A stretch of DNA of 64,000 nt from IMG/VR virus record IMGVR_UViG_3300002134_000110; one strand, 5' to 3'. Origin of the DNA: a virus. Of the stretch, positions 3,729 through 63,743 are shown in pieces (within the stretch, counting starts at the first letter, position 1; the number at the start of each line of letters is the position of its first letter). The notes under the pieces are model-generated. The model had not been told where the DNA came from and made no database searches. It saw nothing but the letters and a program-made list of their open reading frames with translations. Both the position numbers and the translations under genes were made by a program.

Positions 3729-3803
3729 CAACTTTAAAAAAAAATTACTACTTTCACAAAAAAACAGTGACAATAGGTAGTTAATATAAATAGTAATAGG
3801 CTA

Positions 3804-4463
3804 ATGTCGCACGAAAGATTGCTTGATTATTTAAATCAAAGACGGATAATTTATAGGAGATTGCCTATATCAGACAAGCCAACAGCATGTTTTGATTGGG
3901 GTTACTTTTATGAAGATGGTACTCATGAGTGTTATGATTTATTTAGAAGCAAAGCTAAAATAACAAGTTATAGATCTTTAAAATGGCACTTATTAGTTTT
4001 ATGGTATTTAAATCCTCAGCTTGATCAAAAAGCTTTTAATAATCTAGCGGAGTATATTTGTAATAAAAAAAATGGATTTATAACATTTGAACCGCCTGAT
4101 GATTCAGTAAGCAAAATTGTTTACGATGTTAGCATAAAAGATTTAGAACAACCCCCTAAAAATAAAACACGTAAAATAATATTTAAATACCAATGTAAAT
4201 TATCATTATCAGAAAAGCTTAGCATTGTAGGCCAAATGATAGGTAAAACAAAAAGAGTAACAGAAGCAGATATATACGACATGATGCTTTATATAAATGA
4301 TAATGGCGAAAAAATAACAATAACAAAAATAGCTAAGCTATTAAGCTGTGCAACTAGAACCATACACCGAAACATAACCAAAAAACTTAAAGATGAAAAA
4401 GAACTATTAAATCAACAAAATGAAAAAGTACAACATTCGCAATTATGTGAGGTACAAGGATGA
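3804..4463 (+). CDS. hypothetical protein with a C-terminal HTH-like segment
   Basis: 219-aa ATG ORF after a 75-nt gap. The C-terminal ITITKIAKLLSCATRTIHRNITKKL looks like a helix-turn-helix. It overlaps the sigma factor gene by 44 nt. Confidence 0.55.
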   Translation: MSHERLLDYLNQRRIIYRRLPISDKPTACFDWGYFYEDGTHECYDLFRSKAKITSYRSLKWHLLVLWYLNPQLDQKAFNNLAEYICNKKNGFITFEPPDDSVSKIVYDVSIKDLEQPPKNKTRKIIFKYQCKLSLSEKLSIVGQMIGKTKRVTEADIYDMMLYINDNGEKITITKIAKLLSCATRTIHRNITKKLKDEKELLNQQNEKVQHSQLCEVQG

Positions 4464-5181
4464 TGTTAAAATATCAATTAATTTAATTGAGTTTAAAGCA
4501 TTTCAAGACTACACGCGAGACGAACTAATTGTTACTTTCCTACCATTGGTAGAGAACATAGCGCGGAAGTTTTCAACTTCAGATCAAGCATCAGGTGTTA
4601 TGGATATTACGGATTTAATTCAAGACGGAAGTTTAGGATTAATAAAAGCAGTAGACAAAATAATATGGGATACCGTAACGGGATCTAATGATCCAGAAAA
4701 AACATTAAAGTCTTTCCTATCAAAGAGAATAAAAGGGGCAATACGAAGGGCTATTGATATTAACAGAGGTGATATACGAATACCAGAACACAAACTAACC
4801 GAAATAAGAAAAGATAACGGCAAAGATAAGACTATGGTAGCAATGTTTTTTAATTCCATTTTTCTTAGCATTGACGAGCAAGTAAATGAAGATGATGACA
4901 ATATAATGCATCAAATACCGGATCAGACTGAGCCATACAATATAACTTTATTGAATTTATATTTAACAAGCCTATTAAAAAAGCATTTAGACGAAAAAGA
5001 ATTTGAAGTATTAAGATTAAGCTATGGGCTTAATTGTGATAAACACTCCGCAAATAAAATAGCAGAGATATTAAATATAGAAGGATCAAGCGCTTATGTT
5101 AGGATTTCAGAGATTAAAAAACAAGCAGTGCAAAAATTAATAGAAAATGTAGATTCTTCGCAAGTAATTGACTATCTTTAA
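4420..5181 (+). CDS. RNA polymerase sigma factor (sigma-70 family)
   Basis: Region 2 signature DLIQDGSLGLIKAVDKI. Region 4 signature FEVLRLSYGL followed by ANKIAEILNIEGSSAYVRISEIKKQAVQKL. Confidence 0.8.
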   Translation: MKKYNIRNYVRYKDDVKISINLIEFKAFQDYTRDELIVTFLPLVENIARKFSTSDQASGVMDITDLIQDGSLGLIKAVDKIIWDTVTGSNDPEKTLKSFLSKRIKGAIRRAIDINRGDIRIPEHKLTEIRKDNGKDKTMVAMFFNSIFLSIDEQVNEDDDNIMHQIPDQTEPYNITLLNLYLTSLLKKHLDEKEFEVLRLSYGLNCDKHSANKIAEILNIEGSSAYVRISEIKKQAVQKLIENVDSSQVIDYL

Positions 5182-5206: not shown

Positions 5207-5731
5207 ATGAAACTACACGAAAAATTAAGTAAAATCCAAGTAGAGTTTAAATCTAAAAAAAGTAGGTTTAATGCATTTGGCAAGTACAACTTCAGATCAG
5301 CTGAAGACATCCTAGAAGGGTTAAAACCATTTAATGAAAAGTATAGTGTATACTTTAAAGTGGATGAAGAGCTAATAGTTTCTGATCCCTTCCCAATGTT
5401 TAAATCTGTTGCCACTATATCAGATGGTACAGATACAATACAAGCTACCGCTGTTGTGGGTGTTGATCTTGAACAAAAAGGAATGCAAATGCCACAAAAA
5501 TTTGGTAGTGGTTCTTCTTATGGGAAAAAATATGCTCTTGGAAATTTATTACTAATAGATGACACAGCAGATTCAGATGCAACAAATAACCATGACAAAA
5601 CAATAACAAAGCCAAAGCTTGAAGGGGCAGCTTTAATAAAAGCAAAAGAATTTTTAGCCTCTGGCAAAGGAACTATCGAAGACATTAAAAAGAAATATCA
5701 AATTGATACATCAATTTTAAGCACGTTATAA
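5207..5731 (+). CDS. ERF-family single-strand annealing protein (candidate)
   Basis: LHEKLSKIQVEFKSKKSRFNAFGKYNFRSAEDILEGLKP and GSGSSYGKKYALGNLLLIDD resemble the conserved ERF blocks. It lies next to a nuclease and an SSB-like gene. Confidence 0.55.
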   Translation: MKLHEKLSKIQVEFKSKKSRFNAFGKYNFRSAEDILEGLKPFNEKYSVYFKVDEELIVSDPFPMFKSVATISDGTDTIQATAVVGVDLEQKGMQMPQKFGSGSSYGKKYALGNLLLIDDTADSDATNNHDKTITKPKLEGAALIKAKEFLASGKGTIEDIKKKYQIDTSILSTL

Positions 5732-15249: not shown

Positions 15250-18200
15250 TTAAAAATCTAAATTTTTACTAGAAGATCTTCTTCTTCTTTTTTTAGCATT
15301 CCTAGCTTTTTCAATTTCTGGATCTTTTAATCCAATATCCCAAGAATTATAACCTAAAAATAAAGCCGTACGCTGCCATGCCTCCGCGTCTTGTTGAGTA
15401 ATAGCTTTTATATTTGAAACTTTAGTAAGAACTCTATCTAATGGAAAATTAAATGCGGCCGAAACTAAATTACCACCTATTTGATAATATGGATGATTAG
15501 GATTGTCATAGCCAATTTTGTCAAGTATTTTTTTATTAAACTTGTAACTTTCCATTGCTCCATAAATTTTCCTGGCTTTAATTCCTACAGCTGGAGATAT
15601 GTTTAATAGCTCTATAATAACTTTTCCGTTTTGCCCAGTAAATCCTTTATCATTTTCACGCATCCATGCAATCGTTGCATTTTTTAAAGTAGCTAAAGCT
15701 GCTCCGCCAATTCCAGATCCACGTAATGCGCTATCTAACATTGTATTTATAGCTCTTTCTGTTTTTTTATCTATTTTTAAATCTTCATCTTCGTCATCTC
15801 CAAATACACCTGCAAATAAAGCATTTTGTAAAAATGCAAATATAGTGTTTTGTATTGCGCCATAATAAACAAGCCTAGCCACATTAGCTTTAAAACTGCC
15901 TCTTCTATTTATTAAATCCAACATAGCTTTCTTTTGTATGCGTGTCATCTGCATAGTTGTGTTTTGGAATGCTAAGAATATTCTTCCAATAACACTAACC
16001 TGCTGGTTAGATAATAAATCCTGTCTTGAAGATTGTTGAGTGCGCTCTGCTATTTCTTGAAAATCTAAAAAAGCCTCTTCTTTGGCTTTTGCTTCAGACA
16101 TTCCCTCTTTAATATATTTTTGTTCTCTATTATATAAAAATGGCGCGCCTCCAGTTGCTACTGCAATATTATCTCCATATTTAGTAAGAGAAAAACCTTT
16201 TTCTAAAATATAAGATAATAAAGCTTTATTTTTATTTTTGCTACCCTCTAATCTAGCAACAAGCTCAGACTCATTTATATCTGTTTTTAAGCCTTGTCTA
16301 CGCTCTTTCATCCAATCAGAGTTAAATATATCAACCCAATATTTTGCGTATGTTGCGGGGCTTCCTGCAATAAATTTACCTTGAGCAAAAATATTATTAT
16401 CTTCCCAGTTTGTAAAGTTAACAATAGAAAGTTGTTGTAGCAATGCCGATCTAGTGTTAAAAAACATGGTAACCCCAACAGAACCTCTTACCCAATCTAA
16501 ATATGCGTTAGCTAATTTGTTATTACCTATTTGTCTTGCGCGCCCGTTTTTAATTCTATAAAGCATATCTTCTAATGCTGATCTTAAATCAGGACCATAA
16601 GCTGCCTCAATTTTGTTTATATTTTCTTTAGAAAATATTATATCAGCATTTGTAATAAATTTTTCAAATATTCTTGCTCTACCAATTTTACTTAATATTT
16701 CTTGCAAGTCCATTTCAATGGTACTAGCTGTCCAATCTTCTTCTGGTTTTAGCCAACTTTCTTTTTTATTTGGAACATTAATAAGATCTTCAGCAAAAGT
16801 AAGTAAAGACATATCAGAAACAACTGATTTTATTAAAGCATTTTTGTCTGTTTGACTTATTCCGGGAACATCGTACCCTAGTTTTGACCACATATAAACT
16901 CTAACCGCGTCATCATTGCTGTAGTATTTATAATCACTTTCTGCTCTTAATTTTTTTGTTATTCCTTTATTTGCTTTAATTAAATTATGATAACTTTGTT
17001 TTATTAATTGTCTTTCAGCATTTAAATTAAAGTTAGCTCTTGCTAATGGTTTAAGGAGTTTTTCATCCATAAATTTCATGTCAGCATCTCCTTGCTTGCC
17101 TGTACCATAAAAATTATATAATAAACCAGCAAAATCATCAGCTCCGGGCGGTATAAATATTTTTAATTTGCCTTTACCTTCTCCTATTTTTTTAGCGGTT
17201 GCATTAGATATTAATTCATTTTCACTAATACCTTTTTTGCGCTCAAGCATTTTATTAAATTCAATGCTCATTCCTAAAGATGCTTTTGAAGTTTCTTTAT
17301 TATTATAACTTTCTTTAGTTATAATTTCTCCATTAGTCATTCCAGGTAATCCTATTATTTGTAAATTAATATTTGACGGTAAATTTTCAAAATATCTTTG
17401 TAATACATCTAATGGTGTTGCATTAAAAAAATCAAAGCCTTTGTTCATTGAATTTTTAACATTCATTTCAGAATTTAAAGTAGTATCAAAGCTTTTTTGC
17501 GTTAAAGATGCAATCCTTAATTTTTTAATATTTTTAAATTGTTCATCGGATATTCTGCCTATAACATTTCCTATAGATAAATTAGCAAATAACAAAGCGG
17601 GTAGCATGTGCTCATAAACATATTTAATTCCTTTGCTATTTAAATTTTTAGTTATATAACTTAAATCATAAGAATTTTTTAATGGCGTGGACATATGCTT
17701 TAGCTGCCCAGCATATATTAAACCAACTGTAGTTAGATCTATTTTTAAATTAGGATCTTTTGAATTGTATAATTTTTTTACAGTAGCATGCAAATCATCG
17801 AACAAAACTTTAGACTTATTTACTTCTAATGTTCTTCCTTCTACGTTAATTTGTTTTGGGTCTGCACCAATTAAATCATCTGATCCAGGAAATGGTTTTA
17901 ATGGTGTAAATTTATAAATATTTTTATTTTTATAATATATTGATGTACCTATAATCTCTTTTGTTTTAGAATCTAAAACATTTTCAGCTTTAAAATTTTT
18001 TGTTAATATACCATCAAACGCATCTAAAAGACCTTGATTATTTCCAAACAAAGTTTTGTTAACACCACTAGCCCAAGGTTTATTAAGGGTTTTAAGCATA
18101 GAAATCATTTGCGTTTCTTTCTGGCTTTTAGTGGCATTAGGTGTTTTAAAAGAATATAAATTCCACCACTTTTGTATAAATGCTTTGCCTCGATCTTTGT

Positions 18201-21200
18201 TTTCTTGTTTATTAGGGCTAAGTCCAAAATATGGCAATCCAACCACCGCGGAAACAACTTGATCTGGATCAAAATCTTTTTTATCAATTTCATCAATAAA
18301 ATCTAAAAATTCATTTGTTGATTTGTATTTTTGGTTTATTAATTTTCTTCCAATATCAATATAATTATCTTTAATTGCTCCAACAAGATTTAATATGTTA
18401 TTTTTTTCAATGTCCGAAAACTTATTACTAAAAATAATTTTATAAGCTTCTTCAAAATTTCCATCATTTAAAGCTGTCCTTAAAACATTTTTAAATCCAT
18501 TTAAAAATAAAGCTTGTTTTTCTGGAGATAAATCTTTAAGAAATTCTATATCCGCACCTAAAGATAGTTTGGCTATACCTCTTGGCAATGTTTTTTCCAT
18601 TCCGTCTATTACTTCCTCAGCTTTTATTTCAGTATAAAGTTCTGATATATTTGCTATAGATTCAGTAAGAATTCCTCCTTCACTTAAATCTTTTAGTATA
18701 ACTTCAAAACCTTTTTCAGAAGCAATTTGCCGAGCTAAAGAAAAAATAGCATTAGTTTTTATTTTATTACGTAACGCTCCATCTTGAAAATGATAATCTA
18801 CATATTCATTTTCTTTTACCGCTTCTTTAATTTTTGGATTTCTTTTAATAAACTCAGGCCCTGAAGTCATACCCCTCCCGGCTGCATTATCTCTATCTAT
18901 TTTAAGCTTATTGCCTTTTTTATCAATCCAATCATATTTATATTCTGAAATTTTAGTAGGGGCAACCCATTCTCCGTTAACTCTTTTGAGTATGCCTTTT
19001 CTAAAAAATGGATGTTTAGATAAAAATGTAGTTGTAAAATTATTTAAAAAAGCTTCCCTATTATCTATTAAAAATTGCTCTAATCCTTTTTCTTTTATAA
19101 ATTTAATAATATCTTTTTCAGCAAAATCAGCAATATCTTTTTTTAAGTCAGCTACAAAAGGGGTTATAGTTCTATTTTTAGTTGTTTCAATATTAAATTT
19201 CTTTATATTTAAAACAATTGCTTTGTTTATGTTTTTTACAAAACTTTCATCTAACTCTTTTGTAAATTTAATTTTTTCTGATAGTAATGCTTTTTTCTGA
19301 ACGGGCTTTTCTTTAGCGATTTCTTCTGAAGCTAACATTGAATCTTCGGCGGTTTCATCGGACATTAAGTCTTTTTGTAAGGTGGCATCAGATGTAAAAC
19401 CTAAACCTCCCTTTTCTTGAGTAGATTCTACACCAATTTCTTTAGCTAAAGAATTTGCACGGGCATTCATAATAAATGACATGTACTGGTCTACGGTTTG
19501 CCCCTTGCCGGGTTTAAAATCAGCCATTTGCAGGGAAGCATTGGTTATAATTGCCCTTAAGTATTCTGTTTTTGTTACCCCCCTCAACGAGTCAGGGTTA
19601 ATTTTACTAAATAAACGCTGTGTAATTGATGTTGCTAGCTTTATCACTTGTGTGCCAAATATTGAGTCCTCAACTCTCCCCTTAACATCTTTGCCTTTAC
19701 TGTTATAAGTTAATGTTTCATTAACTAGTTTAGTTACATTGCCGTCGTATTTATCATATAGTTCTTGCAAGTTATTATATTGAGGTTTATTAGAATCATC
19801 TATTTGGTTTTGAGGTACATTATTTGCTAATGAAAGCTTTTTGTCTTGTAATTCTTCTTTGTAAAATTTAATTTTTTTACCTCTTTGAATAAAATTATTA
19901 AAAGAATTTAAATGCAAAATAACATCTTGCGCTCTTCCTACAATTTCACTTGCTCCGGCGTTAATGCCGAATGCTCCTAAAGCTTGTGATCTAATGCCGC
20001 TTATATAATTAGAAAATTGATAAGCTTTGTTTTCTAAATCGCTTTGTTTTATATAACCATTTTGTAAAAGCTCATAATAAAGATTTTGAAATTCTTCATT
20101 TAATTGTGTATCTGAAATTTTAGTGTCTTTATATTTTTGCATTCTTGCTAAAGCAAAGTCGTATACGCTTCCTTTAATTTCTTCATTTTCTTTTTTATTT
20201 TTTAAAATATTTTTTAATTCTTCAACTGCTTCGTTAAAACGTTTTTTGTCTTTAAAAATAAAGTTTTTAGAAGAAGTATATTCATGCAGTGTTTCATGTA
20301 AAGGGGTCATAGCTGCGGTGGCAGCATCAAATTCGATAGATTCCGCTTCGCTTATAGCCGCAGTTATAGCGGCAGAGTTTAATAATTTTGTTTTACCGTC
20401 GTCTGCAATTATACCATATGAGCTTTTTATCTTTCTTTTCCCTGTTTTAGGATCTATTTCAACAAACATTAAATCTTTGACTTCTGCGTCAATATCCTCA
20501 TCTGATTTTTCCCTAAAATAATCATTCTTTTTTAATTTAGCAAGTCCTTTATTAGAAAGCGCCGTTATATCAAAAGCCTCAAGTGCTATTAAATCAAAAT
20601 CATCCAACTCTAATTCAATTAAAGCATTTCCAGATGCTTGACTAAGTTTTTTATTAATTTGGTATTTTTGCCAAAGAAAAATAGATTCGGCAGATTTAAT
20701 TTCTTCTGGTACAGTTGCTTTTTCAACGGATTTTATAATTGCATTTTTTTTATTAGAAAGCCCCTGTAGTTGATCTTTTAAATTTTTTACACGTTTTCTC
20801 GTAGCTTCATCACCAATTTTAAAATTATCAGTAGAGGCTAATTGTGCTACTTCTCTATATATTTTATTTATTTTTGCATCTACATCAAATAATTCTTTTG
20901 CTTGTGACTCGCTAAAATTATCTAAGTTTGTGGCAATATATTGATTTAAAGTAGCTGCTTTTTTAAGAACATTCCCCATTTGTTCTTGAACATCTTTTTG
21001 ATTCTCTGGATTTAGAGATTCCTGAAGATTATAGTATTCTTTTAAATATTTTTTAAACAATACTTGATCCACTTTAGATTTTCCGGCATTAACTAAACTA
21101 TTGGTTAACGTCATTGAATTTATCCCGCCGCCAACTAACAAAGTTGAAAAAGTAGTACCAGCAAAAAATTCAGGCGTAAATCCGTCTAAAAGAGACACAT

Positions 21201-23409
21201 CCATTCCCATTATATATCTATCCCCTAAATTTTGAAAATATTGAGTACCCATTTCTTCTATATTTTCTACTCCAGACATAACGCTCCTGCCAATGGCTAT
21301 TCTACCTAGTTTAGGCAAAACTCCTTTTACTCCAGCCGTCGTTAAAAATCTTCTTGCAGATTTACCAATAAGTACATTACCAAATTGTTCAAACCCAGCT
21401 TCTAAACCACCATGAGCTATAGCTGAGCCTCCTGTCCTTATGAGCCCATAATCTTGTAATTCTATTTGATAATTTAATTCTTTTTTAATTTGATTAACTT
21501 CAAATTCAGTTAAATTTGTATTTTTTAATTGCTCTTGTAAAGCTATAACTACTTGCGAAGCTAATCCTTGAGCTTCTTTAATATCATTGTATTTTGTACC
21601 AGTAGAAGATATAAAAAACGTAGGAATGGTTGTTTTCCCTATTTCAGACAACGCTGTTCCTACTTTACCTAACAACCCAACGCCTTTAGCGGCAGCGCCT
21701 AAACCGCCTAATCCACTTAAAATTGTAGAAGGAGCATTATCTGCGCCTATTTCTAAAAGAACATCCATAAATGACGCCCCATATTTTTGATCCTTAAATT
21801 CTAACGGAGCCGGTATTTTTTTGCCTTCCTCTTTTATGCCTTTAGAAATTATAGACGCTTCATTTGAAATTATATCAAACACGCTTGTCGCTGAGGCGGT
21901 TGGTAATCCAAATTTAGCGCTCGAATAATTTTTATCTAAAGCAGAAAGAATATCGGCGGCTAATTTTACTGTACCAGCTACTCCTCCCACGGTAAATTCT
22001 GCGGTTCTTTGCGAAACTCTTGAAAAAAGATTATAATCATAATCCAAGGCCTCCTTCATTAGCCCCTCATCTTTTAAATTGCCTATTTTATCATAATAAG
22101 CCTCAATATCTTTACTTTGCCTTTGTTTTATATTAACTAAGTTATTTACAGAATATATTAAATCTTTATTTTTATTAAACAAATTTGTAATTTCTTCTAC
22201 TTTTTGAGCATGAAGAGCTAATAAATCTTTTGAATTAGGTTCTTTTAATAATTGTTTATTAATTTTTTGAAGCTCCGATGACAAATTATCTAACCCTGCA
22301 ACAAAAGGGGCTGCTTGTTCAGTTAAATCCTTATTTAATTTTACTAAATATTTATTATTGTCTTGTAACTCTTTTCCTACTTCTTCGGCATATTTGTTAG
22401 CTTGTTGCGGTGTTTCAAAATCAAAATTTTCATTAAAAATTCGCATATCTTCTTGCTGACCTTCCGGGAGATCGTCTATTGCGTTTCTTAATTTTCTTTT
22501 TTGAAGAGTATTTTCTGCTATTTTTTCTGCAGTATTTTGTGATTGTTCATCTGATATTTCAAATACGCCAGTTTCTTTCCAAGAAACGTAATCATCATAT
22601 TTGTTGCCTAAAATGTTTTTATAAAATTTGTCTTTATTAATATCTAGATCTACCCCAGGGGCTGGTCCTTTTGATGTTAGTACAACTTTATTTTGAAAAT
22701 CTTTTTTGTATTCTTTTTCAATAGCGTCAAGGCCAAAATAAACATTAGCGGCTTCTTCAGCTATTTCTGTTTCAGAATGGATTTTACTTTTATTATTTAT
22801 TTCGTCAAATATTTTTTTATTATTTTTTCTTTTTAAAGAAGTGTTTTTAGGGGTTCCAATAACCTCGTCAAGCTTTGTAACAATTTCTGGGTATATTATT
22901 TCAACCCTACTGCGCATACCAGCCGTTTTCTCTGTCCTTGACCTATCTCTTTGTAAACTATTTAGGTACTGATTAAGTGTTAAATTATATTGTTTTGCTG
23001 TGTTTTCAATTTCTTCAAAAGAATAGGGCGTGCCATCTATTTTTATTATTGTTTTGTCTTTTAACTCTTTTTTTTCAAAATCTGGGTCTCCTTCTTTGGT
23101 TTGAGGAAGAACCCCTAATCTACTAGCCGTAATAGGGCTTTTTTCTTGGCCATTTATTTGTACAAAGCTATTTTGTAATTCCGAAGAACCATTTTCCAAT
23201 GTGGAATCCGTACTTTGCACTTGAATTTCGGGTGCTGCAGTTCCCGCCGCAGGCGCACCCTGTCCCTGGCTTGTTTGCTTTCCCGTAGCGTCTTCAATTT
23301 TTTTTAAGTTTGGATTTTTAGCAAAAAGCTCATCTATTGTGTATCCTTTACTTGACGCAACTTGCTCTAATTGCTCGTATGAATATGTTTTGCCATTAAG
23401 TTCGTACAT
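15250..23409 (-). CDS. giant 2719-aa virion-associated protein (internal/ejection protein candidate by position)
   Basis: Uninterrupted 8.16-kb ORF at the end of the portal-capsid-tail-internal gene order. It has Gly/Ala-rich hydrophobic stretches, an HETLH motif at aa 1038-1042 and a duplicated N-terminal ~28-aa motif. Confidence 0.6.
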   Translation of the reverse strand: MYELNGKTYSYEQLEQVASSKGYTIDELFAKNPNLKKIEDATGKQTSQGQGAPAAGTAAPEIQVQSTDSTLENGSSELQNSFVQINGQEKSPITASRLGVLPQTKEGDPDFEKKELKDKTIIKIDGTPYSFEEIENTAKQYNLTLNQYLNSLQRDRSRTEKTAGMRSRVEIIYPEIVTKLDEVIGTPKNTSLKRKNNKKIFDEINNKSKIHSETEIAEEAANVYFGLDAIEKEYKKDFQNKVVLTSKGPAPGVDLDINKDKFYKNILGNKYDDYVSWKETGVFEISDEQSQNTAEKIAENTLQKRKLRNAIDDLPEGQQEDMRIFNENFDFETPQQANKYAEEVGKELQDNNKYLVKLNKDLTEQAAPFVAGLDNLSSELQKINKQLLKEPNSKDLLALHAQKVEEITNLFNKNKDLIYSVNNLVNIKQRQSKDIEAYYDKIGNLKDEGLMKEALDYDYNLFSRVSQRTAEFTVGGVAGTVKLAADILSALDKNYSSAKFGLPTASATSVFDIISNEASIISKGIKEEGKKIPAPLEFKDQKYGASFMDVLLEIGADNAPSTILSGLGGLGAAAKGVGLLGKVGTALSEIGKTTIPTFFISSTGTKYNDIKEAQGLASQVVIALQEQLKNTNLTEFEVNQIKKELNYQIELQDYGLIRTGGSAIAHGGLEAGFEQFGNVLIGKSARRFLTTAGVKGVLPKLGRIAIGRSVMSGVENIEEMGTQYFQNLGDRYIMGMDVSLLDGFTPEFFAGTTFSTLLVGGGINSMTLTNSLVNAGKSKVDQVLFKKYLKEYYNLQESLNPENQKDVQEQMGNVLKKAATLNQYIATNLDNFSESQAKELFDVDAKINKIYREVAQLASTDNFKIGDEATRKRVKNLKDQLQGLSNKKNAIIKSVEKATVPEEIKSAESIFLWQKYQINKKLSQASGNALIELELDDFDLIALEAFDITALSNKGLAKLKKNDYFREKSDEDIDAEVKDLMFVEIDPKTGKRKIKSSYGIIADDGKTKLLNSAAITAAISEAESIEFDAATAAMTPLHETLHEYTSSKNFIFKDKKRFNEAVEELKNILKNKKENEEIKGSVYDFALARMQKYKDTKISDTQLNEEFQNLYYELLQNGYIKQSDLENKAYQFSNYISGIRSQALGAFGINAGASEIVGRAQDVILHLNSFNNFIQRGKKIKFYKEELQDKKLSLANNVPQNQIDDSNKPQYNNLQELYDKYDGNVTKLVNETLTYNSKGKDVKGRVEDSIFGTQVIKLATSITQRLFSKINPDSLRGVTKTEYLRAIITNASLQMADFKPGKGQTVDQYMSFIMNARANSLAKEIGVESTQEKGGLGFTSDATLQKDLMSDETAEDSMLASEEIAKEKPVQKKALLSEKIKFTKELDESFVKNINKAIVLNIKKFNIETTKNRTITPFVADLKKDIADFAEKDIIKFIKEKGLEQFLIDNREAFLNNFTTTFLSKHPFFRKGILKRVNGEWVAPTKISEYKYDWIDKKGNKLKIDRDNAAGRGMTSGPEFIKRNPKIKEAVKENEYVDYHFQDGALRNKIKTNAIFSLARQIASEKGFEVILKDLSEGGILTESIANISELYTEIKAEEVIDGMEKTLPRGIAKLSLGADIEFLKDLSPEKQALFLNGFKNVLRTALNDGNFEEAYKIIFSNKFSDIEKNNILNLVGAIKDNYIDIGRKLINQKYKSTNEFLDFIDEIDKKDFDPDQVVSAVVGLPYFGLSPNKQENKDRGKAFIQKWWNLYSFKTPNATKSQKETQMISMLKTLNKPWASGVNKTLFGNNQGLLDAFDGILTKNFKAENVLDSKTKEIIGTSIYYKNKNIYKFTPLKPFPGSDDLIGADPKQINVEGRTLEVNKSKVLFDDLHATVKKLYNSKDPNLKIDLTTVGLIYAGQLKHMSTPLKNSYDLSYITKNLNSKGIKYVYEHMLPALLFANLSIGNVIGRISDEQFKNIKKLRIASLTQKSFDTTLNSEMNVKNSMNKGFDFFNATPLDVLQRYFENLPSNINLQIIGLPGMTNGEIITKESYNNKETSKASLGMSIEFNKMLERKKGISENELISNATAKKIGEGKGKLKIFIPPGADDFAGLLYNFYGTGKQGDADMKFMDEKLLKPLARANFNLNAERQLIKQSYHNLIKANKGITKKLRAESDYKYYSNDDAVRVYMWSKLGYDVPGISQTDKNALIKSVVSDMSLLTFAEDLINVPNKKESWLKPEEDWTASTIEMDLQEILSKIGRARIFEKFITNADIIFSKENINKIEAAYGPDLRSALEDMLYRIKNGRARQIGNNKLANAYLDWVRGSVGVTMFFNTRSALLQQLSIVNFTNWEDNNIFAQGKFIAGSPATYAKYWVDIFNSDWMKERRQGLKTDINESELVARLEGSKNKNKALLSYILEKGFSLTKYGDNIAVATGGAPFLYNREQKYIKEGMSEAKAKEEAFLDFQEIAERTQQSSRQDLLSNQQVSVIGRIFLAFQNTTMQMTRIQKKAMLDLINRRGSFKANVARLVYYGAIQNTIFAFLQNALFAGVFGDDEDEDLKIDKKTERAINTMLDSALRGSGIGGAALATLKNATIAWMRENDKGFTGQNGKVIIELLNISPAVGIKARKIYGAMESYKFNKKILDKIGYDNPNHPYYQIGGNLVSAAFNFPLDRVLTKVSNIKAITQQDAEAWQRTALFLGYNSWDIGLKDPEIEKARNAKKRRRRSSSKNLDF

Positions 23410-41257: not shown

Positions 41258-41529
41258 TACTTAGATCTACCTTCAGCGAAACCTCTGAAATTTTTTTGTG
41301 GTGTATCAGCGGATTCATCATTTAACAATTGTTCTTCTTGTTCAATACGTGAAAGTATTTCAAAAGCATCGAATATTGCTAATTTCTTTGTAGCAGCCGC
41401 ATTTTTTAATCTATCAGCTGATATATCATCATCTGAATCAACAATTTTTTCTCTAGCTACTTTTATTAATTCCTCAACTGCTTTTTGCCCAGCTAGGATT
41501 ATTTTCCTCTTCGTTTCCTTGGTATTCAT
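41257..41529 (-). CDS. hypothetical protein (90 aa); small terminase candidate by position only
   Basis: Stop overlaps the terL ATG. The start overlaps the upstream gene by 56 nt, so the true start is uncertain. Confidence 0.35.
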   Translation of the reverse strand: MNTKETKRKIILAGQKAVEELIKVAREKIVDSDDDISADRLKNAAATKKLAIFDAFEILSRIEQEEQLLNDESADTPQKNFRGFAEGRSK

Positions 41530-42079
41530 ATTTAATTACAATATCATTAGATTTCATACAGTACAATTTCTTTTCGTCAACTACAAACTCAAACTCTCCA
41601 CCCGGTGTATAACCAATAAGGTCCCCAGGATTGATTTCTAGCGCTTGTAAGGAACTATTACCATATTTAAGTATACCAATAAGCTTTTGCTCTTTTTCAA
41701 GAGAGAAGCTGTCTTTATTTTTAATTGGAACAACAAAACATCTATCATTAAAAGTTTTCCATTTTTTTGGTTGTCCATATAAATATATTTGATCTGGTGC
41801 ACAAAAATATAAATCATCCATAAACATAGATCTACTATCTTTTTGTTCACCTCTCATGTCGTAAAATCTTCTAAAAACATTATGGTGTATTACAATTATA
41901 TCACCAACACTTATTCCTGTATCATACGCTAATGGCGTAGCTACAACTTCTGCAAAATTATTTACAGATTTAAATGTTTCTATTGATGAGTTTGTAATTA
42001 ATGTTTTATCCCCTACTTTTTTCTCATTATCATAGCGCTTCCCAACTGGCTTCACAATGAAGTCGTAAATACTTCTCAT
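41474..42079 (-). CDS. hypothetical protein (201 aa) with two Cpn10/GroES-like halves (weak)
   Basis: FIVKPVGKRY...AEVVATP...ISVGDIIVIHHNVF and CFVVPIKNK...INPGDLIGYTPGGEFEFVVDEKKLYCMKSNDIV each resemble the Cpn10 pattern. Confidence 0.4.
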   Translation of the reverse strand: MRSIYDFIVKPVGKRYDNEKKVGDKTLITNSSIETFKSVNNFAEVVATPLAYDTGISVGDIIVIHHNVFRRFYDMRGEQKDSRSMFMDDLYFCAPDQIYLYGQPKKWKTFNDRCFVVPIKNKDSFSLEKEQKLIGILKYGNSSLQALEINPGDLIGYTPGGEFEFVVDEKKLYCMKSNDIVIKYEYQGNEEENNPSWAKSS

Positions 42080-42575: not shown

Positions 42576-43031
42576 TTATTTATTATCTTTTATGGCTGAG
42601 CCAAAATAATATCCAAATATGCTTAATGCAACTCCTTCAACTATTCCTAGCAAATGTATAAAAATTTCTTTATTAGAAGCAGGAACTTCTGTAGTAACTA
42701 CAGTATAAACTAAAAAAGCAAAAGCTGTTAATCCAACTATGCCAGTAAGATTAAACATCCAGTCTGTTCCGTACTTTCTTAAGTTTACCTCTCTTTTCCT
42801 AGCCGAATCCCTGTCTTCTACTTCTAACCTATAAAGTTCCACCAATCTATTGTGAGCTTCAGACTTTTGATCTTCGTTTAAATCAGGATCTTTATCTATT
42901 AAGTTTTTAACTACACCTAAAAGACCTTTATCAGGAAGCGCATCTCCTACTACATCTATAATAGTAGAGCCAGCACCTAATAGAAATTTACCAAGTCCTG
43001 TTTCTTTAAAAGGTTTTTTGTTTTTAGACAT
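42576..43031 (-). CDS. membrane protein with two C-terminal TM helices (holin/spanin-like candidate)
   Basis: FNLTGIVGLTAFAFLVYTVV and IFIHLLGIVEGVALSIFGYYFGSA follow a charged N-terminal part. Confidence 0.45.
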   Translation of the reverse strand: MSKNKKPFKETGLGKFLLGAGSTIIDVVGDALPDKGLLGVVKNLIDKDPDLNEDQKSEAHNRLVELYRLEVEDRDSARKREVNLRKYGTDWMFNLTGIVGLTAFAFLVYTVVTTEVPASNKEIFIHLLGIVEGVALSIFGYYFGSAIKDNK

Positions 43032-43369
43032 TATCTATAACTAAACTTAGCTTTAATATTAGGATTTTGTTTTTTTATTTGATTAGCGTAGTTTTCAAAT
43101 TGCTGTGGCGTAATTCCCCCAGCGGCATTGTACGTTGGAATAGCACCACCTTCTTCTAGTCTATTGCTACTTCTTTTTACATATTTAGAAAACTTACCAA
43201 GATTAGCCCCCGTGGGAGTAGGTATTTTTTCACCATACTTTTCATTAATAGCTCCAACTAAATCTTTAGTTTGAGATTCAGTTAATTTACCTTTGCTTTT
43301 TTTAGTATCATCACCAGGTCCTTCGTTTATTTTACTTAAAGGACTTGAATATTTCATTTTAAACGGCAT
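43031..43369 (-). CDS. small basic protein, MPFKMK family (112 aa)
   Basis: Starts MPFKMKYSSPLSK; paralogous N-terminus to 44055..44666. Confidence 0.55.
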   Translation of the reverse strand: MPFKMKYSSPLSKINEGPGDDTKKSKGKLTESQTKDLVGAINEKYGEKIPTPTGANLGKFSKYVKRSSNRLEEGGAIPTYNAAGGITPQQFENYANQIKKQNPNIKAKFSYR

Positions 43370-48664: not shown

Positions 48665-49651
48665 TTAAGCAGTATATGTACCACTCGATGTATAAGTTAG
48701 TATTGTATCGCTTCCATATGTTGTTACAGCAGGCGAACCTGTTGTAGTGCCTGTATAGTTTGCAGTTGGTATACGGAGTATAACTACTCCTGAACCCCCT
48801 GCCATTCCAGATGCTGACTTTCTTCCTCCGCCGCCAGATCCTTTGTTTGTTGCTCCGTTTGTGTCCACAGGCGTAGCTCCATTTGAAGCGGTTCCATTAT
48901 TACTGCCCCTTGCTGCTCCGCCACCAGCATAATATATTGAAGATCCTGTAATATTATTTAAAATACCCTCGCCTCCGTTTCCTCCAGAAGATGAAGTTGC
49001 ATTACCACCTACTGTTCCAGCTCCTCCGCCGCCTCCGCCGCCGATATAATTACTAGAAGCTGTACCTCCATTATTTCCTTGGCCAAGCGTGCCACCACCC
49101 CCAACACCCGCGTACAATGCTCCTCCACCACCTGAACCACCGTCTATACCTGCTCGAGCTGGGGTTGAATTACCAGCGCCACCTCCGCCACCGATAGAAA
49201 TAATGGGTGTTTCATTAGCTGCTTGAATAGAAGAAGACCCTCCATTGCCTCCTTCATAACCAAAGTCTTCTAATTGTACGCCAGCTGCTCCGCCTGCTCC
49301 AACCGTTATTGTATAAGACGTTGGAGGAGTTAATGAATATCCAGTTGAAGTAAGCAATCCTCCAGCTCCTCCACCTCCACTATAATATCCTGTCCGACCA
49401 CCACCACCTGAGCCGCCACCTCCAGCAACTACTAAATAGTCAACTGCATAAGGCAATGGAACAAGCGTATCCAAAGTCAACCACTCTGTGCCATCGTATG
49501 TTTCCATAACAACTTCAGTGGTGTTAAATCTAATATACCCAGCTACAGGAGATACAGGACGCTGCCCTGTTGTTCCTTTAGGAAATGCAGTTGCACCTGT
49601 AGACGAATCTAACTCTAATAAATCTGGGTGGTTTATTTTTGTAGTCGCCAT
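48665..49651 (-). CDS. glycine-rich tail fibre/spike paralogue (328 aa)
   Basis: N-terminus MATTKINHPDLLELDSSTGATAFPKGTTGQRPVSPVAGYIRFNT...YDGTEWL shared with 50047 and 51040. Long GGGG(S/A)GG tracts and a C-terminal GGSGVVILRIP. Confidence 0.7.
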   Translation of the reverse strand: MATTKINHPDLLELDSSTGATAFPKGTTGQRPVSPVAGYIRFNTTEVVMETYDGTEWLTLDTLVPLPYAVDYLVVAGGGGSGGGGRTGYYSGGGGAGGLLTSTGYSLTPPTSYTITVGAGGAAGVQLEDFGYEGGNGGSSSIQAANETPIISIGGGGGAGNSTPARAGIDGGSGGGGALYAGVGGGGTLGQGNNGGTASSNYIGGGGGGGAGTVGGNATSSSGGNGGEGILNNITGSSIYYAGGGAARGSNNGTASNGATPVDTNGATNKGSGGGGRKSASGMAGGSGVVILRIPTANYTGTTTGSPAVTTYGSDTILTYTSSGTYTA

Positions 49652-49652
49652 A

Positions 49653-50036
49653 TTACTCTTCTATAATTACTTCTTCCCAATTTAAAATTTCTTCATTCCA
49701 TTTGTATAACTTACCGTCTGTTGGATAAGGTACTGGTGAATCCCAAAGACAAGTGTCTTCGTTCAATGTCCAGCTATTAAATGGTTGAGGTGGAATAAAA
49801 GCATCTCTTGTAGAATCGTAAGTGTAACCAATACCAGCATAGTTTTTTCTAAGTACCTTAGATTGGTTTTTGCTTGGCTCGTTAGTGTTAGGGGCATAAT
49901 GCACTCCACCTCTTGTATTATAAGAAGTCTGAATCCATTGCCCTGGACTATCGTCTACGAAGTTGTTAAAAAAATCTGCTTCAGCTACAATTACCCTTGT
50001 AACTATTCCGTTTGAAACTTTTGCAAAGTGTCCCAT
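49653..50036 (-). CDS. hypothetical protein (127 aa) interleaved with the fibre paralogues
   Basis: MGHFAKVSNGIVTRVIVAEADFF...WIQTSYNTRGGVHY; chaperone-like by position. Confidence 0.5.
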   Translation of the reverse strand: MGHFAKVSNGIVTRVIVAEADFFNNFVDDSPGQWIQTSYNTRGGVHYAPNTNEPSKNQSKVLRKNYAGIGYTYDSTRDAFIPPQPFNSWTLNEDTCLWDSPVPYPTDGKLYKWNEEILNWEEVIIEE

Positions 50037-50046
50037 ATATATATAT

Positions 50047-51036
50047 TTAAATTTGAAATCTTAATATCACTATTCCTGAACCACCCGAAGCAGAAACTCC
50101 ACCTCCGTCAGATCCACTTCCACCGCCTCCACCAGTATTAGGTGTGCCGGCTACTCCATTTCTATTATTAGGTTGAAATCCACCTCTTCCACCGCCACCT
50201 AGTCCTCCAATATTTCCACTTGTACTACCAACAGGTATACCAGCGGCACCACCGCCTGCATAGTAGCCGTTATCTGCGCCAGTAGAAGTAGCTGTAGCCC
50301 ATGCGGAATACGTGTTAATGCCATTCCCCCCAGGTGTTGCTATTCCGGTTGCGCTTGGGGGTGTTCCATTGTTTCCAGCCCCACCGCCTGATCCACCTAC
50401 CCTTGAATCACCATTACCACCATCATTTCCTTGACCAGTAGTTCCGTTTCCAGCAGATCCAGATACAGGACCAGCTCCACCACCGGAACCCCCGTTGTTT
50501 CCGCTATCATTACTAGCTGCGCCGCCTGCTCCACCTCCAATAGCAACATTTGAATTAAAAGATGAAGAATCTCCATTAGAATTTACTCCACCACCTCCGC
50601 CAACAACAACTGTATAATTTCCAGTGCTTAGTTCTTGTGAAGCATAAAGTAATCCACCAGCACCTCCGCCTCCACCGCAATTAGCGGTGCCATCAGAAGA
50701 TCCCGCACCACCTCCGCCAGCTATAATTAAAGATTGAATAGTTGCCGTTCCCGTTATTCCAAAAGTTCCTCCCGTTGTAAACGTGTGATACCTATACCCG
50801 TCACTTTCAACAATAGTTCCTCCTGTAGTAATTGGTACATTTGAAACAGCATTAATCTTCCTCCACTCTGTACCATTATAGGTTTCAAGTTTTGTTTCGT
50901 CTATCTCAGAGTTATGGCGTAGTGTTCCTTCAACAGGATTAGATGGTCTTTGAGCTGTAGTACCTTTAGGTAATCCTAATGCACCAGTGTCTGAACCTAA
51001 GTCTAATAAATCGTTTGTTATTTTAGTTAATGCCAT
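50047..51036 (-). CDS. glycine-rich tail fibre/spike paralogue (329 aa)
   Basis: MALTKITNDLLDLGSDTGALGLPKGTTAQRPSNPVEGTLRHN; Gly tracts; C-terminal GGSGIVILRF. Confidence 0.7.
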   Translation of the reverse strand: MALTKITNDLLDLGSDTGALGLPKGTTAQRPSNPVEGTLRHNSEIDETKLETYNGTEWRKINAVSNVPITTGGTIVESDGYRYHTFTTGGTFGITGTATIQSLIIAGGGGAGSSDGTANCGGGGGAGGLLYASQELSTGNYTVVVGGGGGVNSNGDSSSFNSNVAIGGGAGGAASNDSGNNGGSGGGAGPVSGSAGNGTTGQGNDGGNGDSRVGGSGGGAGNNGTPPSATGIATPGGNGINTYSAWATATSTGADNGYYAGGGAAGIPVGSTSGNIGGLGGGGRGGFQPNNRNGVAGTPNTGGGGGSGSDGGGVSASGGSGIVILRFQI

Positions 51037-51039
51037 AAT

Positions 51040-52083
51040 CTATGCTGTATAAGTTCCAGAACTTGTATATTTTAATACTGTATAGCTTCCGTCAGTAGTT
51101 ACAGTTGGTGCACCAGTTGTTGTACCAGAGTATTGCGATGTTAAAAGTCTTAGTATTACTACTCCTGAACCGCCAGACCAACGAGATTGAATGTTTGCTA
51201 TGCTTCCACCGCCTCCGCCTCCGCCTCCAGTGTTTGCTTGCCCTGCGCTTCCTTCTGTAATAACTCCTCCTGTAGATACAGAATGTCTTGAGCCATTTCC
51301 TCCGCCAGATGTAGCAACACCTCCAGTAGAATCACCTCCAGTACCGCCGCCGCCGCCTGCTCTGCTTACTAAAGAACCTGTTATGTTTGAAGAAACTCCA
51401 TTTCCTCCGTTTCCTCCGTTACTTGATGAATTAGCTGGGCTGCCGCCAATAGAACCCGCTCCGCCTCCTCCTGCGGAAGAATAATTTACTGCCATTGCAA
51501 AAGCATTTCCACCAGCATAACCTTGACCAGTTGTTCCAGCAGCGCCTAAAAGAGTATTACCTCCATTTGTAGAACTACCACCGCCTCCTCCTGACCCGCC
51601 GCTTAAAGCAGGTATATAAGTTGAATTACCACCACCAGCACCACCTTGTCCTCCTCCTAAAGACTCTATTGTACTAAAAACAGAAGACGAACCAGAAGTT
51701 GTAGAGCTACCAGCTCCAATAGTTATAACATAAGAAGTACCAGGAATTAATGTAAGTGAACTTTCTGCGGCAGAACCACCTCCTGATGTTGCACCATAAG
51801 ATGTTCTAAGACCTCCTGCTCCGCCGCCACCACCAAAATATCCTGCTCCACCGCCACCACCAGCAATTACTAAGTAATCAACTAATATAGCCGGGCCTTG
51901 ACTCTTAACCTGCTTCCATTGTGTTCCGTTATAATACTCAATAACATTGTCATCGGTATTCTCACGAACCATACCAGCAACAGGAGATGAAGGCCTTTGT
52001 GCAGTAGTACCTTTAGGTAGGTTTAAACTGCTTGTGCTTTCACCAAGCGCTAATAAATCGTTTGTTACTTTTGTTAATGCCAT
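51040..52083 (-). CDS. glycine-rich tail fibre/spike paralogue (347 aa)
   Basis: MALTKVTNDLLALGESTSSLNLPKGTTAQRPSSPVAGMVRENT; Gly tracts; C-terminal GGSGVVILRL...YTSSGTYTA, the same ending as 48665. Confidence 0.7.
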   Translation of the reverse strand: MALTKVTNDLLALGESTSSLNLPKGTTAQRPSSPVAGMVRENTDDNVIEYYNGTQWKQVKSQGPAILVDYLVIAGGGGGAGYFGGGGGAGGLRTSYGATSGGGSAAESSLTLIPGTSYVITIGAGSSTTSGSSSVFSTIESLGGGQGGAGGGNSTYIPALSGGSGGGGGSSTNGGNTLLGAAGTTGQGYAGGNAFAMAVNYSSAGGGGAGSIGGSPANSSSNGGNGGNGVSSNITGSLVSRAGGGGGTGGDSTGGVATSGGGNGSRHSVSTGGVITEGSAGQANTGGGGGGGGSIANIQSRWSGGSGVVILRLLTSQYSGTTTGAPTVTTDGSYTVLKYTSSGTYTA

Positions 52084-62547: not shown

Positions 62548-62817
62548 TTATGCTCTTCTTGATTGTTCCTTTTCTTGTTTTGTTCCGTCAGGTCTATTTT
62601 GAGCCTGTGTACCGCCTCTATTAAAAGCCATAGGCACAAACCTGCGGGTATTGTGGTCAAAATCCTTACCTTTTATATCCTTGCCATCTTTAATGGCCTC
62701 TCTTCTCTTCATTTGGCTCTCTCTACGCTTTTTTTCCCTGTCAGGAGTATTCGCCGCAGCCAAATCACGCTTCTTTTTATCAGCAGCACCCTTAGGTGAT
62801 AGTTTTTGCTTCCCCAT
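62548..62817 (-). CDS. small basic protein (89 aa), first gene of the late arm
   Basis: Lys/Arg-rich: KKKRDLAAANTPDREKKRRESQMKRREAIKDGKDIKGKDFDH. Confidence 0.6.
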   Translation of the reverse strand: MGKQKLSPKGAADKKKRDLAAANTPDREKKRRESQMKRREAIKDGKDIKGKDFDHNTRRFVPMAFNRGGTQAQNRPDGTKQEKEQSRRA

Positions 62818-62839
62818 AACTTATATAACCTGCTCAGTA

Positions 62840-62929
62840 CCTAAATATATAGCCACAACAGTCTCATTCCCTAAATATAAGGTGGCAACCACTTCATTTC
62901 CTAAATTAATAGCCATATTTCAATGTTTT
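62840..62929. repeat. three direct repeats with an exact 30-bp period (CCTAAAT at 62840, 62870, 62900)
   Basis: CCTAAATATATAGCCACAAC.. / CCTAAATATAAGGTGGCAAC.. / CCTAAATTAATAGCCATATT... On the late-gene strand each unit ends in (T)ATATTTAGG or ATTAATTTAGG. The nearest unit is 22 nt from the ATG at 62817. Confidence 0.8.
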
Positions 62930-63351
62930 GTATACTATATATACTTACACAACAACCCCACAATTTACACCATAGACATAAAGTGGGACATTAGCCCCCT
63001 ACTATTTATATTAACACCCTAACGTCGCACTTTTACACCGTACCTTATATAATACGCGTAGCGTTTTTTAAAAAAAAATTTATAATTTTTACCTTTTTTA
63101 TATAAAACAGCCAGGTGGAAAAAAAATTGTTGTGAATATTGAGGTGTGGTATAACACCTATATTTTACGGTGCGGTACCGAAAAGGTTTTGCGTTTCGTT
63201 TTCACCGGGTCCCCCGTTTTCCTGACGTTTTGGCGTTATCGTTTTGCCTTTCGGTGGGTTTTCCGTGCACGTTTGGGGTATTCTATTTTGGCCTACTGCC
63301 GTTGCGATCGGTACACCGTTTGAGTTGTCGTTTCGGTATCGGTAATGGTCT

Positions 63352-63398
63352 GACCTCACGGCTTCTGCCCGAGCAAACCTCACGTCATTCTTCCGAGC
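63352..63398 (+). repeat. tandem pair of 23-nt repeats R1-R2
   Basis: GACCTCACGGCTTCTGCCCGAGC (63352-63374) and AACCTCACGTCATTCTTCCGAGC (63376-63398). Confidence 0.8.
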
Positions 63399-63400
63399 GA

Positions 63401-63518
63401 TCGGTATCGGTGTCGGTAACGGTACGGTATCGGTAACGTCAACGGTAACGTCAACGGTAACGGTGCTGGTAACGAATCGGGATCGGGATCGGTGCCGGTG
63501 TTGGTGCCGGTATCGGCA
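63401..63518 (+). repeat. degenerate hexamer-period array (about 20 units of NCGGTR)
   Basis: tcggta tcggtg tcggta acggta cggta tcggta acgtca acggta acgtca acggta acggtg ctggta acgaa tcggga tcggga tcggtg ccggtg ttggtg ccggta tcggc. Confidence 0.8.
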
Positions 63519-63542
63519 GACCTCACGGTCCTTATTGCGAGC
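63519..63542 (+). repeat. third copy (R3) of the ACCTCACG...CGAGC repeat
   Basis: GACCTCACGGTCCTTATTGCGAGC closes the hexamer array. Confidence 0.8.
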
Positions 63543-63566
63543 ATTCTCTTAGCATTTTTAAAAGGG

Positions 63567-63595
63567 TTGATACGAGTCTCTATTGATAATATATA
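63567..63595 (+). promoter_or_regulatory. early promoter module copy 3 (TTGATA-17 nt-TATATA)
   Basis: TTGATACGAgtctctaTTGATAATATATATGTAA aligned with copies 1, 2 and 4. Confidence 0.55.
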
Positions 63596-63638
63596 TGTAA
63601 ATAAAAAATAATAATAATAATAATTAAATACTACTACT

Positions 63639-63743
63639 ATGCAAACTATTAAAATTAAATTAATTCTTTTATTAATAAATATAATAAGACCCCTTAGAAG
63701 ATTATTAAAATCTATAGACTATAAATTAATAGACTTAGTCTAA
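63639..63743 (+). CDS. hypothetical small protein (34 aa)
   Basis: Hand-translated MQTIKIKLILLLINIIRPLRRLLKSIDYKLIDLV, 44 nt downstream of promoter copy 3. Very low complexity, so doubtful. Confidence 0.25.
   Translation: MQTIKIKLILLLINIIRPLRRLLKSIDYKLIDLV

Follow-up and report, generated by a model that had tools for sequence, protein, structure and literature searches.

The left end of the bacteriophage T7 genome consists of a terminal repeat (nt 1-160, with C5ATAG5 at 25-37), followed by short repeats of the CCTAAAG type and then by the early promoters A1-A3. Between nt 161 and 400 the sequence CCTAAA occurs eight times and its complement not at all, and G makes up 11% of the bases. One-directional short repeats beside phage genome ends are thus already known from T7; to our knowledge, no role has been established for those that adjoin its terminal repeat. 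In the Tenacibaculum phage Gundel_1 (Pachyviridae), a 322-bp direct terminal repeat (DTR) is annotated at both ends and lies between leftward genes and rightward early genes. Here we analyse a GC-rich island at positions 63165-63545 of a 64,000-nucleotide stretch of viral DNA (IMG/VR record IMGVR_UViG_3300002134_000110; the whole stretch is called the window below), which may be compared with both of these systems.

The island had been picked out by a model from the sequence alone, as non-coding DNA with a function in cis, possibly an origin, a packaging site or a physical genome end (hereafter the original prediction). The island is non-coding DNA, a conclusion that is well supported, and a role in cis is plausible. 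It is a lineage-specific expansion of the spacer that separates two conserved motifs, M1 and M2, from the first early promoter in every member of a group of Bacteroidota podophages, and if it acts at all it acts as DNA. By analogy with the short repeats of T7 we lean, with somewhat less than even confidence, towards placing it beside a concatemer junction or genome end. We know of no earlier description, in Bacteroidota phages, of an M1/M2 anchor with a hypervariable and recurrently expanded GC-rich tract; a literature search gave only the prediction of the Gundel ends.

Composition of the island

Sliding-window profiles of G+C content and CpG density, proposed as a check with the original prediction, both reach their maximum for the window in the island. 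Its G+C content is 205/381 (53.8%), as against 34.8% for the window, and the 381-nt stretch richest in G+C falls here (0.543 at 63168); the runner-up, 0.533 at 50171, is coding. The best 381-nt stretch in the island holds 45 CpG, compared with 21 for the next best in the window and a median of 8, and the ratio of observed to expected CpG is 1.65 in the island and 0.71 in the window as a whole. Windows of 100 nt have 46-58% G+C within the island, 26% immediately to its left and 13-23% to its right. The hand counts first reported, 69/120 for 63421-63540 against 14/60 for 5221-5280, are exact. However, the general figure of 55-60% G+C given with them describes the right half of the island (63300-63549) and not the left half, which has 46-51%.

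Base usage in the island is also strongly directional. A is depleted to about 15%, making this the lowest-A 348-nt stretch of the window. In the interval that separates M2 from the first early promoter, the + strand has 17 copies of CGGT and a single copy of the complement, ACCG. The window has 68 copies of CGGTA; 13 of these lie in the island, where 12 are + strand copies. The description of the island as saturated with CGGT stands, as do the neighbouring A/T tract (Table 1) and the location between divergent arms, with - strand genes spanning 15250-62817 on one side and the first + strand early promoter, at 63572, on the other.

Non-coding status

The three overlapping open reading frames (ORFs) listed for the island do exist (54-88 amino acids, on both strands), but their properties are not those of genes. 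Near-identical metagenome contigs, found through the proteins neighbouring the island, differ in their ORF sets: the + strand ORF is 88, 119, 68, 98 or 107 amino acids long, the - strand ORFs are reshuffled, and in the array-free relative L042 there is no island ORF of 40 or more amino acids. The length differences between strains (23, 17, 65 and 94 nt) are not multiples of three. Mismatches are spread evenly over the codon positions, at 12/8/14 relative to L042 and 16/11/17 relative to a second array-free relative, L152 (p = 0.44 and 0.49 for uniformity). A Pfam search of the island ORFs gave no match. One JGI gene caller places a gene at the island; the ENA assemblies have none. Taken together, the changing ORF sets, the frame-breaking length differences, the even codon positions and the lack of a Pfam match support well the earlier claim that the island is non-coding.

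The two fallbacks offered with that claim, a structured RNA and a horizontally acquired fragment, are not supported. An Rfam scan of the island found nothing at the gathering threshold or up to an E-value of 10, and a tRNA scan of the region was equally empty. The folding energy of the two strands was no better than that of shuffled sequence (z = -0.54 and -0.61), and RNAalifold, applied to the conserved core of 20 relatives, returned no consensus pairs. As to acquisition from elsewhere, megablast and blastn searches of the region against 50,697 phage records, yielded no match, and a 20-mer taken from the array has no exact match in IMG/VR. L042 and L152 carry an AT-richer, array-free homologue at the very same site, which can be aligned over the left half of the spacer and also over the final 23-nt unit, so the island was not imported but grew in place.

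Strain variation and growth in place

M2 and the first early promoter lie 181 nt apart in L042, 254 in L045, 283 in L040, 325 in L002, 348 in the window and 365 in L006. The spacers form a graded series in this order, with L152 beside L042 at its start. In L042 and L152 the spacer measures 181-202 nt, has 42-45% G+C, lacks CGGT altogether and contains the 23-nt unit, which is tandemly repeated in the window, as a single copy. The left half of the window spacer is about 75-80% identical to theirs. Differences in the G+C-ward direction outnumber the opposite ones in the window by 16 to 3 relative to L042 and by 23 to 9 relative to L152, and in the lineage of the window CGGT is found also outside the tandem array, at places where L042 and L152 have other bases. 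Strains that circulate together differ in spacer length, and between strains the number of hexamer copies ranges from 0 to about 20. These comparisons show a spacer that grew in place, through triplication of the 23-nt unit, slippage-like expansion of a CGGTAN array and GC-ward substitutions.

Just beyond the first early promoter there is a microsatellite, (AAT)6 at 63607-63624, whose length is likewise strain-dependent (+9 nt in L002). The majority of the short metagenome contigs terminate at 63542-63698, on either side of this run. We considered contig ends as candidates for physical termini and rejected them, the ends being scattered (62879, 63152, 63292, 63542-63573 and 63640-63698).

The spacer slot in related phages

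The phage is a podovirus-type relative of phages of Flavobacteriia. Its large terminase (TerL) is 62% identical to that of the metagenomic phage MW202828, 44% to those of the Flavobacterium elemo phages, 37% to those of the Cellulophaga phi18:3 and phi38:1 groups and 30% to that of Gundel_1. Relatives for the comparison of the slot were collected as 27 IMG/VR loci through the basic 89-amino-acid protein encoded next to the island at 62548-62817 (36-73% identity), supplemented by motif scans.

The position of the slot is conserved in more than 40 related Bacteroidota phage contigs. Their common architecture comprises the leftward gene for the 89-amino-acid protein, the promoter-like element P2, an A/T tract, M1, about 40 nt, M2, the spacer, a set of upstream boxes and early promoter 1. 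The A run and T run of the relatives align at the same place as the A/T tract of the window. M1 and M2 align almost without gaps across 20 relatives, and M2 (TTTCATTTnnCCGGGTCCCCC plus a T run), which is unique in each genome, occupies the same place in at least 20 relatives from the protein search and in more contigs from the motif scan. The upstream boxes near early promoter 1 are GCGAGCA/TTAGCA in the window and two copies of GTATAGCA in relatives.

What lies between M2 and the boxes is, in contrast to this conserved frame, extremely variable, with lengths of about 90 to 680 nt and G+C contents of 17 to 53%. Among 35 distinct spacers, the long true expansions reach 45-53% G+C where the surrounding DNA has 31-40%, and 14-20% of their bases are A; at the other extreme L146 has a short AT-rich spacer of 17-19% G+C. 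The repeats differ from lineage to lineage: CGGTAN in the window, TCCTGG in L027, GCCGTT in L127, CCCTCC in L123 and L163, TTCCC in L062, GTGTCG/GGATCG in L077 (671 nt, 81 CpG), and GATACG and GT-rich repeats in L099, L101 and L114. At least eight unrelated repeat types occupy the one slot. The arrays share a strand polarity: for the most frequent 5-mers of an array, the reverse complement is almost always absent from it. Assemblies break within the arrays. The comparison shows that other lineages filled the slot independently with one-strand, A-poor, GC-rich arrays.

In MW202828, the closest relative by TerL, the annotated junction is a gap of 64 bp without an island. When a position weight matrix (PWM) for M2 was run over phi38:1, phi18:3, elemoE and MW202828, none of the four junctions gave a convincing site; in phi18:3 the top match does lie in the junction but points the opposite way, and the third-ranked match in elemoE is a G-run variant. 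When bacterial genomes were scanned with the M2 pattern, one family member was recovered, in a metagenome-assembled genome of Sphingobacteriales, and the other matches were random. The early promoters of phi38:1 are preceded by a non-coding stretch of about 1.2 kb, which carries C/A-rich short repeats in one direction.

Two related junctions have features of their own. In MW202828.1 a low-complexity, CpG-dense (CG/CA)n tract, annotated as hypothetical proteins, is found some 600-800 nt from the junction (L001 13000-13190, about 43000-43190) and is probably a non-coding repeat tract of the same kind as the island. The junction of elemoE (NC_055854.1; L049 18100-18560), which exceeds 1 kb, contains GC-richer non-coding stretches directly downstream of TAnnTTTG promoters, and these may be small RNAs that open the early region.

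Anatomy of the control region

From left to right, the control region of the window consists of the late-operon promoter element P2, the A/T tract, M1, M2, the spacer and the first early promoter (Table 1).

Table 1. Features of the control region that contains the island, in window coordinates.
Feature	Coordinates	Strand	Remarks
P2, palindromic promoter-like element (GTGcGAC..GTTAATATAAATAGTA..GTCcCAC)	62980..63034	-	head of late operon; left border of control region
A/T tract, A runs and T runs	63060..63126		4/46 G+C at 63065-63110
M1, conserved motif, family consensus TTATTAGATATATAGGGGTATGGGGTTAC	63127..63159	+	aligns in 20 relatives; near-fixed distance to M2
M2, conserved motif, AAACgnTTTCATTTnnCCGGGTCCCCC then T run	63190..63221	+	marks left edge of island
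Spacer left half, T-rich and A-poor, with repeated units of CGTTTT/TTTTGCC type and scattered CGGT(A)	63222..63352	+	
Tandem 22-24-nt unit, two copies, ACCTCACG(G/T)-N7-8-CCGAGC	63353..63398	+	repeat families D5 and D7
Hexamer array, about 20 x (A/T)(A/T)CGGT, single orientation	63399..63516	+	Tandem Repeats Finder: period 6, 19.8 copies
Third 23-nt unit, ACCTCACGGTCCTTATTGCGAGC	63520..63542	+	the sole copy common to array-free variants
First early promoter-like site, TTGATACGAGT-N5-TTGATAATATATATG	63568..63600	+	right border of control region

The core of M2, CCGGGTCCCCC, occurs once in the window. The M2 PWM scores 33.5 at this site and 8.8 at the next-best independent site of the window. 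M1 has a core similar to that of P2 and points into the island; it looks like a half-copy of the P2 palindrome set in the opposite direction. The M1 of the window also includes a 6-bp hairpin (63142-63159), flagged as terminator-like, but as a structure this is not conserved among the relatives.

Within the spacer, the left half has an AT skew of -0.44 to -0.71. Its T tracts were considered as a source of bent DNA, a reading rejected because they show no helical phasing and no 10-11-nt periodicity. Self-identity of the hexamer array is 0.65 at a lag of 6 and 0.17 at a lag of 3. The array was also considered as one of clustered regularly interspaced short palindromic repeats (CRISPR), an identity excluded by its construction from 6-nt head-to-tail units and three 23-nt units in place of 24-48-nt repeats with unique spacers.

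The 16-nt core of P2, GTTAATATAAATAGTA, has exactly two copies in the window, one at 3780 (+) and one at 63000 (-), each of them upstream of a gene block, and the element is conserved in relatives. P2 is predicted to be a promoter. In full, the palindromic element covers 3766-3812 (+) and 62980-63034 (-), the first site heading the middle (+) gene block and the second the late (-) one, and it is probably a promoter combined with an operator for a dimeric regulator.

Resemblance to phage genome ends

The comparison with the T7 concatemer junction, offered in the original prediction as a loose analogy, is the best available, since the order of elements is the same at the left end of T7 and at the predicted DTR of Gundel_1. 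The T7 end and the island share non-coding DNA, a C-run motif near the end, short repeats on one strand and a cluster of early promoters. Polarity and base depletion also correspond: in the island CGGTA is found 11-12 times in one orientation against 0-1 in the other, with A at about 15%, and in T7 the depleted base is G. The differences are nevertheless considerable. The two phages belong to unrelated families with unrelated sequences, and T7 has irregularly spaced heptamers at 39% G+C where the island has tandem hexamers at 54%. Transcription at the T7 end runs in one direction, whereas the island lies between divergent arms, and the termini of T7 are established while those of the window phage are at most predicted.

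Gundel_1 provides the second comparison. Its TerL belongs to the same family as that of the window phage, despite the low identity. On the circular map its DTR has the same setting as the island, with leftward genes on one side and the rightward early genes on the other. An M2 PWM built from the 20 relatives, without Gundel, has its best match over both strands of 40 kb of Gundel at nt 38-68, inside the DTR (TGGTTTTCATTTATACACCCCCCTATTGATT); the chance of the top match falling in the first 100 nt is about 1 in 800, an estimate made post hoc. After the DTR comes the lowest-A 160-nt stretch of those 40 kb (nt 357-517, with 7.5% A as against 41.6%), and then the first early promoter. The tract of Gundel_1 differs from the island in being G/T-rich, with 41% G+C and no tandem hexamer array, and the promoter that follows it is of the host type (TAnnTTTG).

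A more distant parallel is the 'a' sequence of herpesviruses, in which the unique pac1/pac2 cleavage and packaging signal, with G/C runs beside a T-rich element, adjoins the GC-rich, strain-variable DR2/DR4 reiterations. Here the virus is eukaryotic and there is no sequence relationship; the likeness serves as a lead only.

If the island does lie beside a concatemer junction or genome end, M1 and M2 would form the recognition or cleavage module of that junction, and a short direct terminal repeat might start near 63160-63190, where the composition steps up. The island would then be a repeat tract that adjoins this terminal repeat and separates the early promoters from the leading genome end. 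Its counterparts would be the short repeats beyond the left terminal repeat of T7 and the G/T-rich tract beyond the DTR of Gundel_1. The sequence-specific signal would be M2 and not the array; the array, which contains no match to the early-promoter motif, could serve as a length-tolerant buffer or a protein-binding tract in the part of the DNA that enters the cell first.

Several observations weigh against such a placement. The assembly closes as a circle, and no terminus has been observed in this phage or its close relatives; the ends of the related Calle phage have not been determined, and the records of the elemo phages start at arbitrary positions. M2 is single-copy in IMG/VR contigs of 58-68 kb, as expected of a DTR collapsed in assembly but equally of a genome without a DTR, and it was found at both contig ends in 0 of 16 contigs. 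The contig ends described above flank the (AAT)n run and the arrays, and so probably reflect strain variation. Array sequences differ between lineages, so that they have no sequence-specific binder in common. As to Gundel_1, the margin of its M2 match is small (9.2 against 7.6) and the resemblance is at the level of the motif, a direct alignment of the whole window region with the Gundel junction being not significant (p = 0.22). Its ends are themselves a PhageTerm prediction without experimental verification (PMC8776804).

A bolder form of the genome-end reading holds that M1, M2 and the variable one-strand tract together make up a concatemer-junction or leading-end module of a large, mostly uncultured group of Bacteroidota podophages, and that the tract is under selection. 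We regard this as unlikely, though it has points in its favour: selection on the tract is suggested by the recurrent independent expansions, by their directional composition and by the GC-ward changes that create oriented CGGT outside the array. Such a tract might, for example, be a loading or stalling track for a lineage-specific end-binding, packaging or ejection protein, convergent with the short repeats of T7.

Alternative explanations

The alternative that survives best, although we consider it unlikely, is neutral expansion, in which slippage fills the sole sizeable unconstrained slot of a tightly packed genome with functionless arrays, and only M1, M2 and the promoters matter. The variable-number tandem repeats (VNTRs) and microsatellites of bacteria and phages are likewise tandem, strain-variable in copy number and subject to slippage-like indels. 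The wide range of spacer lengths, the unrelated repeats of different lineages, the copy numbers that vary between strains, the breaking of assemblies in the arrays and the existence of relatives such as L146 with short AT-rich spacers are all in keeping with it. However, at 35% G+C drift should lead towards AT, and the long true expansions are instead GC-rich and poor in A. Unlike VNTRs, the slot has been expanded recurrently in many lineages with a directional composition, and the oriented motif is found outside the array too, where CGGT arose by GC-ward point differences in a single orientation (17 against 1 over the whole spacer). The combination of CGGT outside the array with GC-ward differences makes pure neutral slippage hard to sustain. 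Nor would neutral expansion lead one to expect a one-strand, base-depleted repeat tract in the same slot of the distant Gundel and phi38:1 and of the unrelated T7.

A replication origin, also among the functions first suggested, is quite unlikely. The CGGTAN repeats would be short iterons, the A/T tract an unwinding element, and the divergent promoters would provide activation. Iteron origins such as lambda ori, P4 ori/crr and plasmid oriV resemble the island in having direct repeats of one orientation near an A/T tract, with sequences specific to the lineage, as co-evolution with an initiator would produce. The phage does encode a small helix-turn-helix (HTH) protein like DnaA domain IV, as well as a primase-helicase, and the cumulative AT skew has its minimum at 63559. 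But the GC-skew minimum lies 2.3 kb away, at 65797, and both minima coincide with the switch of coding strand, the skews following gene orientation. The 6-nt tandem unit has no 10-11-nt phasing and is unlike iterons of 17-22 bp; no initiator gene is adjacent; and the A/T tract is about 290 nt from the array, beyond M1 and M2. The array is absent from the close relatives L042 and L152, and an essential origin should be more stable than one with 0 to about 20 copies depending on the strain.

An operator or insulator array is very unlikely. Here the repeats would bind a lineage-specific regulator, or part the divergent promoter systems, and so tune early promoter 1. The array is well placed for this, directly upstream of that promoter (50-170 nt) and beside the repeated upstream boxes, and the design has precedent in the omega repressor heptads of plasmid pSM19035, where arrays of 6-7-bp direct repeats upstream of promoters act as operators. 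Against it, no candidate regulator was identified, the six other early promoters have no such array, and L042 and L152 lack the array yet have a nearly identical promoter. Mimicry of the promoter's ACGA element, with the repeats as decoys, also failed as a variant: ACGA is not enriched in most arrays, and reaches three or four copies in L077, L099 and L114. Chi-like protection sites were set aside because the oriented motif is different in every lineage.

The weakest candidate, a structured non-coding RNA or a small Arg/Gly/Pro-rich protein, is most improbable, the likeness of M1 to the P2 core, its direction into the island, the ORFs and the single JGI gene call being outweighed by the unstable reading frames and the empty Pfam, Rfam and folding results given above.

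Significance

Whatever its role, the slot offers a natural series in which hexamer copies range from 0 to about 20 within a species and at least eight unrelated repeat types replace one another across lineages. M2, as a conserved and unique anchor, can be searched for in metagenomes and is a candidate marker of the packaging site. If it does mark the site of packaging or cleavage, it would provide a handle for orienting circular assemblies of these abundant aquatic Bacteroidota phages and for starting them at the correct position. In practical terms, the arrays are sites where metagenome assemblies break and spurious ORFs are called.

Genome context and other observations

Contig L041 supplies the 2,152 nt between the end of the window and its start, so that the genome closes as a 66,152-bp circle. 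Samples that contain the phage include JGI 3300002137 and 3300002136, SRR7253998 and the NILS19 runs from which ERZ23495998 and related assemblies were made. The early-promoter motif, ACGA-N10-GATAATATA, occurs four times in the window, always on the + strand, where 0.41 occurrences are expected by chance; in the closed circle there are seven, all directed rightwards from the island. Related phages have conserved the motif. The late operon runs leftwards from P2, diverging from the island. Early-promoter-like sites are located at 63572, 63761, 561 and 1769 (+), with three more in the 2,152-nt gap covered by L041, and their common form is ACGA-N10-GATAATATA(A/T)ATG. They are not of the Bacteroidota TTTG/TAnnTTTG type, whereas phi38:1, Gundel and the elemo phages have TAnnTTTG at the equivalent place, which suggests that the early genes are read with a different polymerase or sigma specificity. 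ATATTTAGG was tried as a genome-wide promoter and rejected, not being enriched (28 found, 39 expected).

Genes on the + strand encode a sigma-70-like protein with regions 2 and 4 (4420-5181), the small protein with the DnaA domain-IV HTH (2881-3390) and an ERF-type annealing protein (5207-5731). The core of the early promoters, T(T/G)GATAA, resembles a DnaA box, and the DnaA-like protein may therefore act on them.

Immediately upstream of the gene for the 89-amino-acid protein, the late-operon leader contains a 31-amino-acid ORF (62821-62916, -) made up of three 10-amino-acid repeats that correspond to three 30-bp direct repeats (62827-62915). It is called as a gene in most of the near-identical contigs that cover the site, whereas relatives with 57-66% identity lack it. 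A leader peptide is one possible reading, a mere triplicated regulatory site another.

Further into the late arm, a putative small terminase is encoded at 41474-42079. An ORF of 2719 amino acids in the virion gene block (15250-23409, -) has no match in PHROGs, Pfam or PDB sequences. Conceivably its product is a giant protein that is injected, perhaps a virion RNA polymerase like those of N4 and of crAss-like phages. The tail-fibre end of the late arm, 48.6-63 kb, has a higher G+C content than the rest of the genome. Within it, a block at about 49-52 kb (48665-52083, -) has 44-46% G+C and repeats of the CCGCCT/CTCCGCCGC type inside its ORFs, which are probably Gly-rich (collagen-like) fibre proteins.

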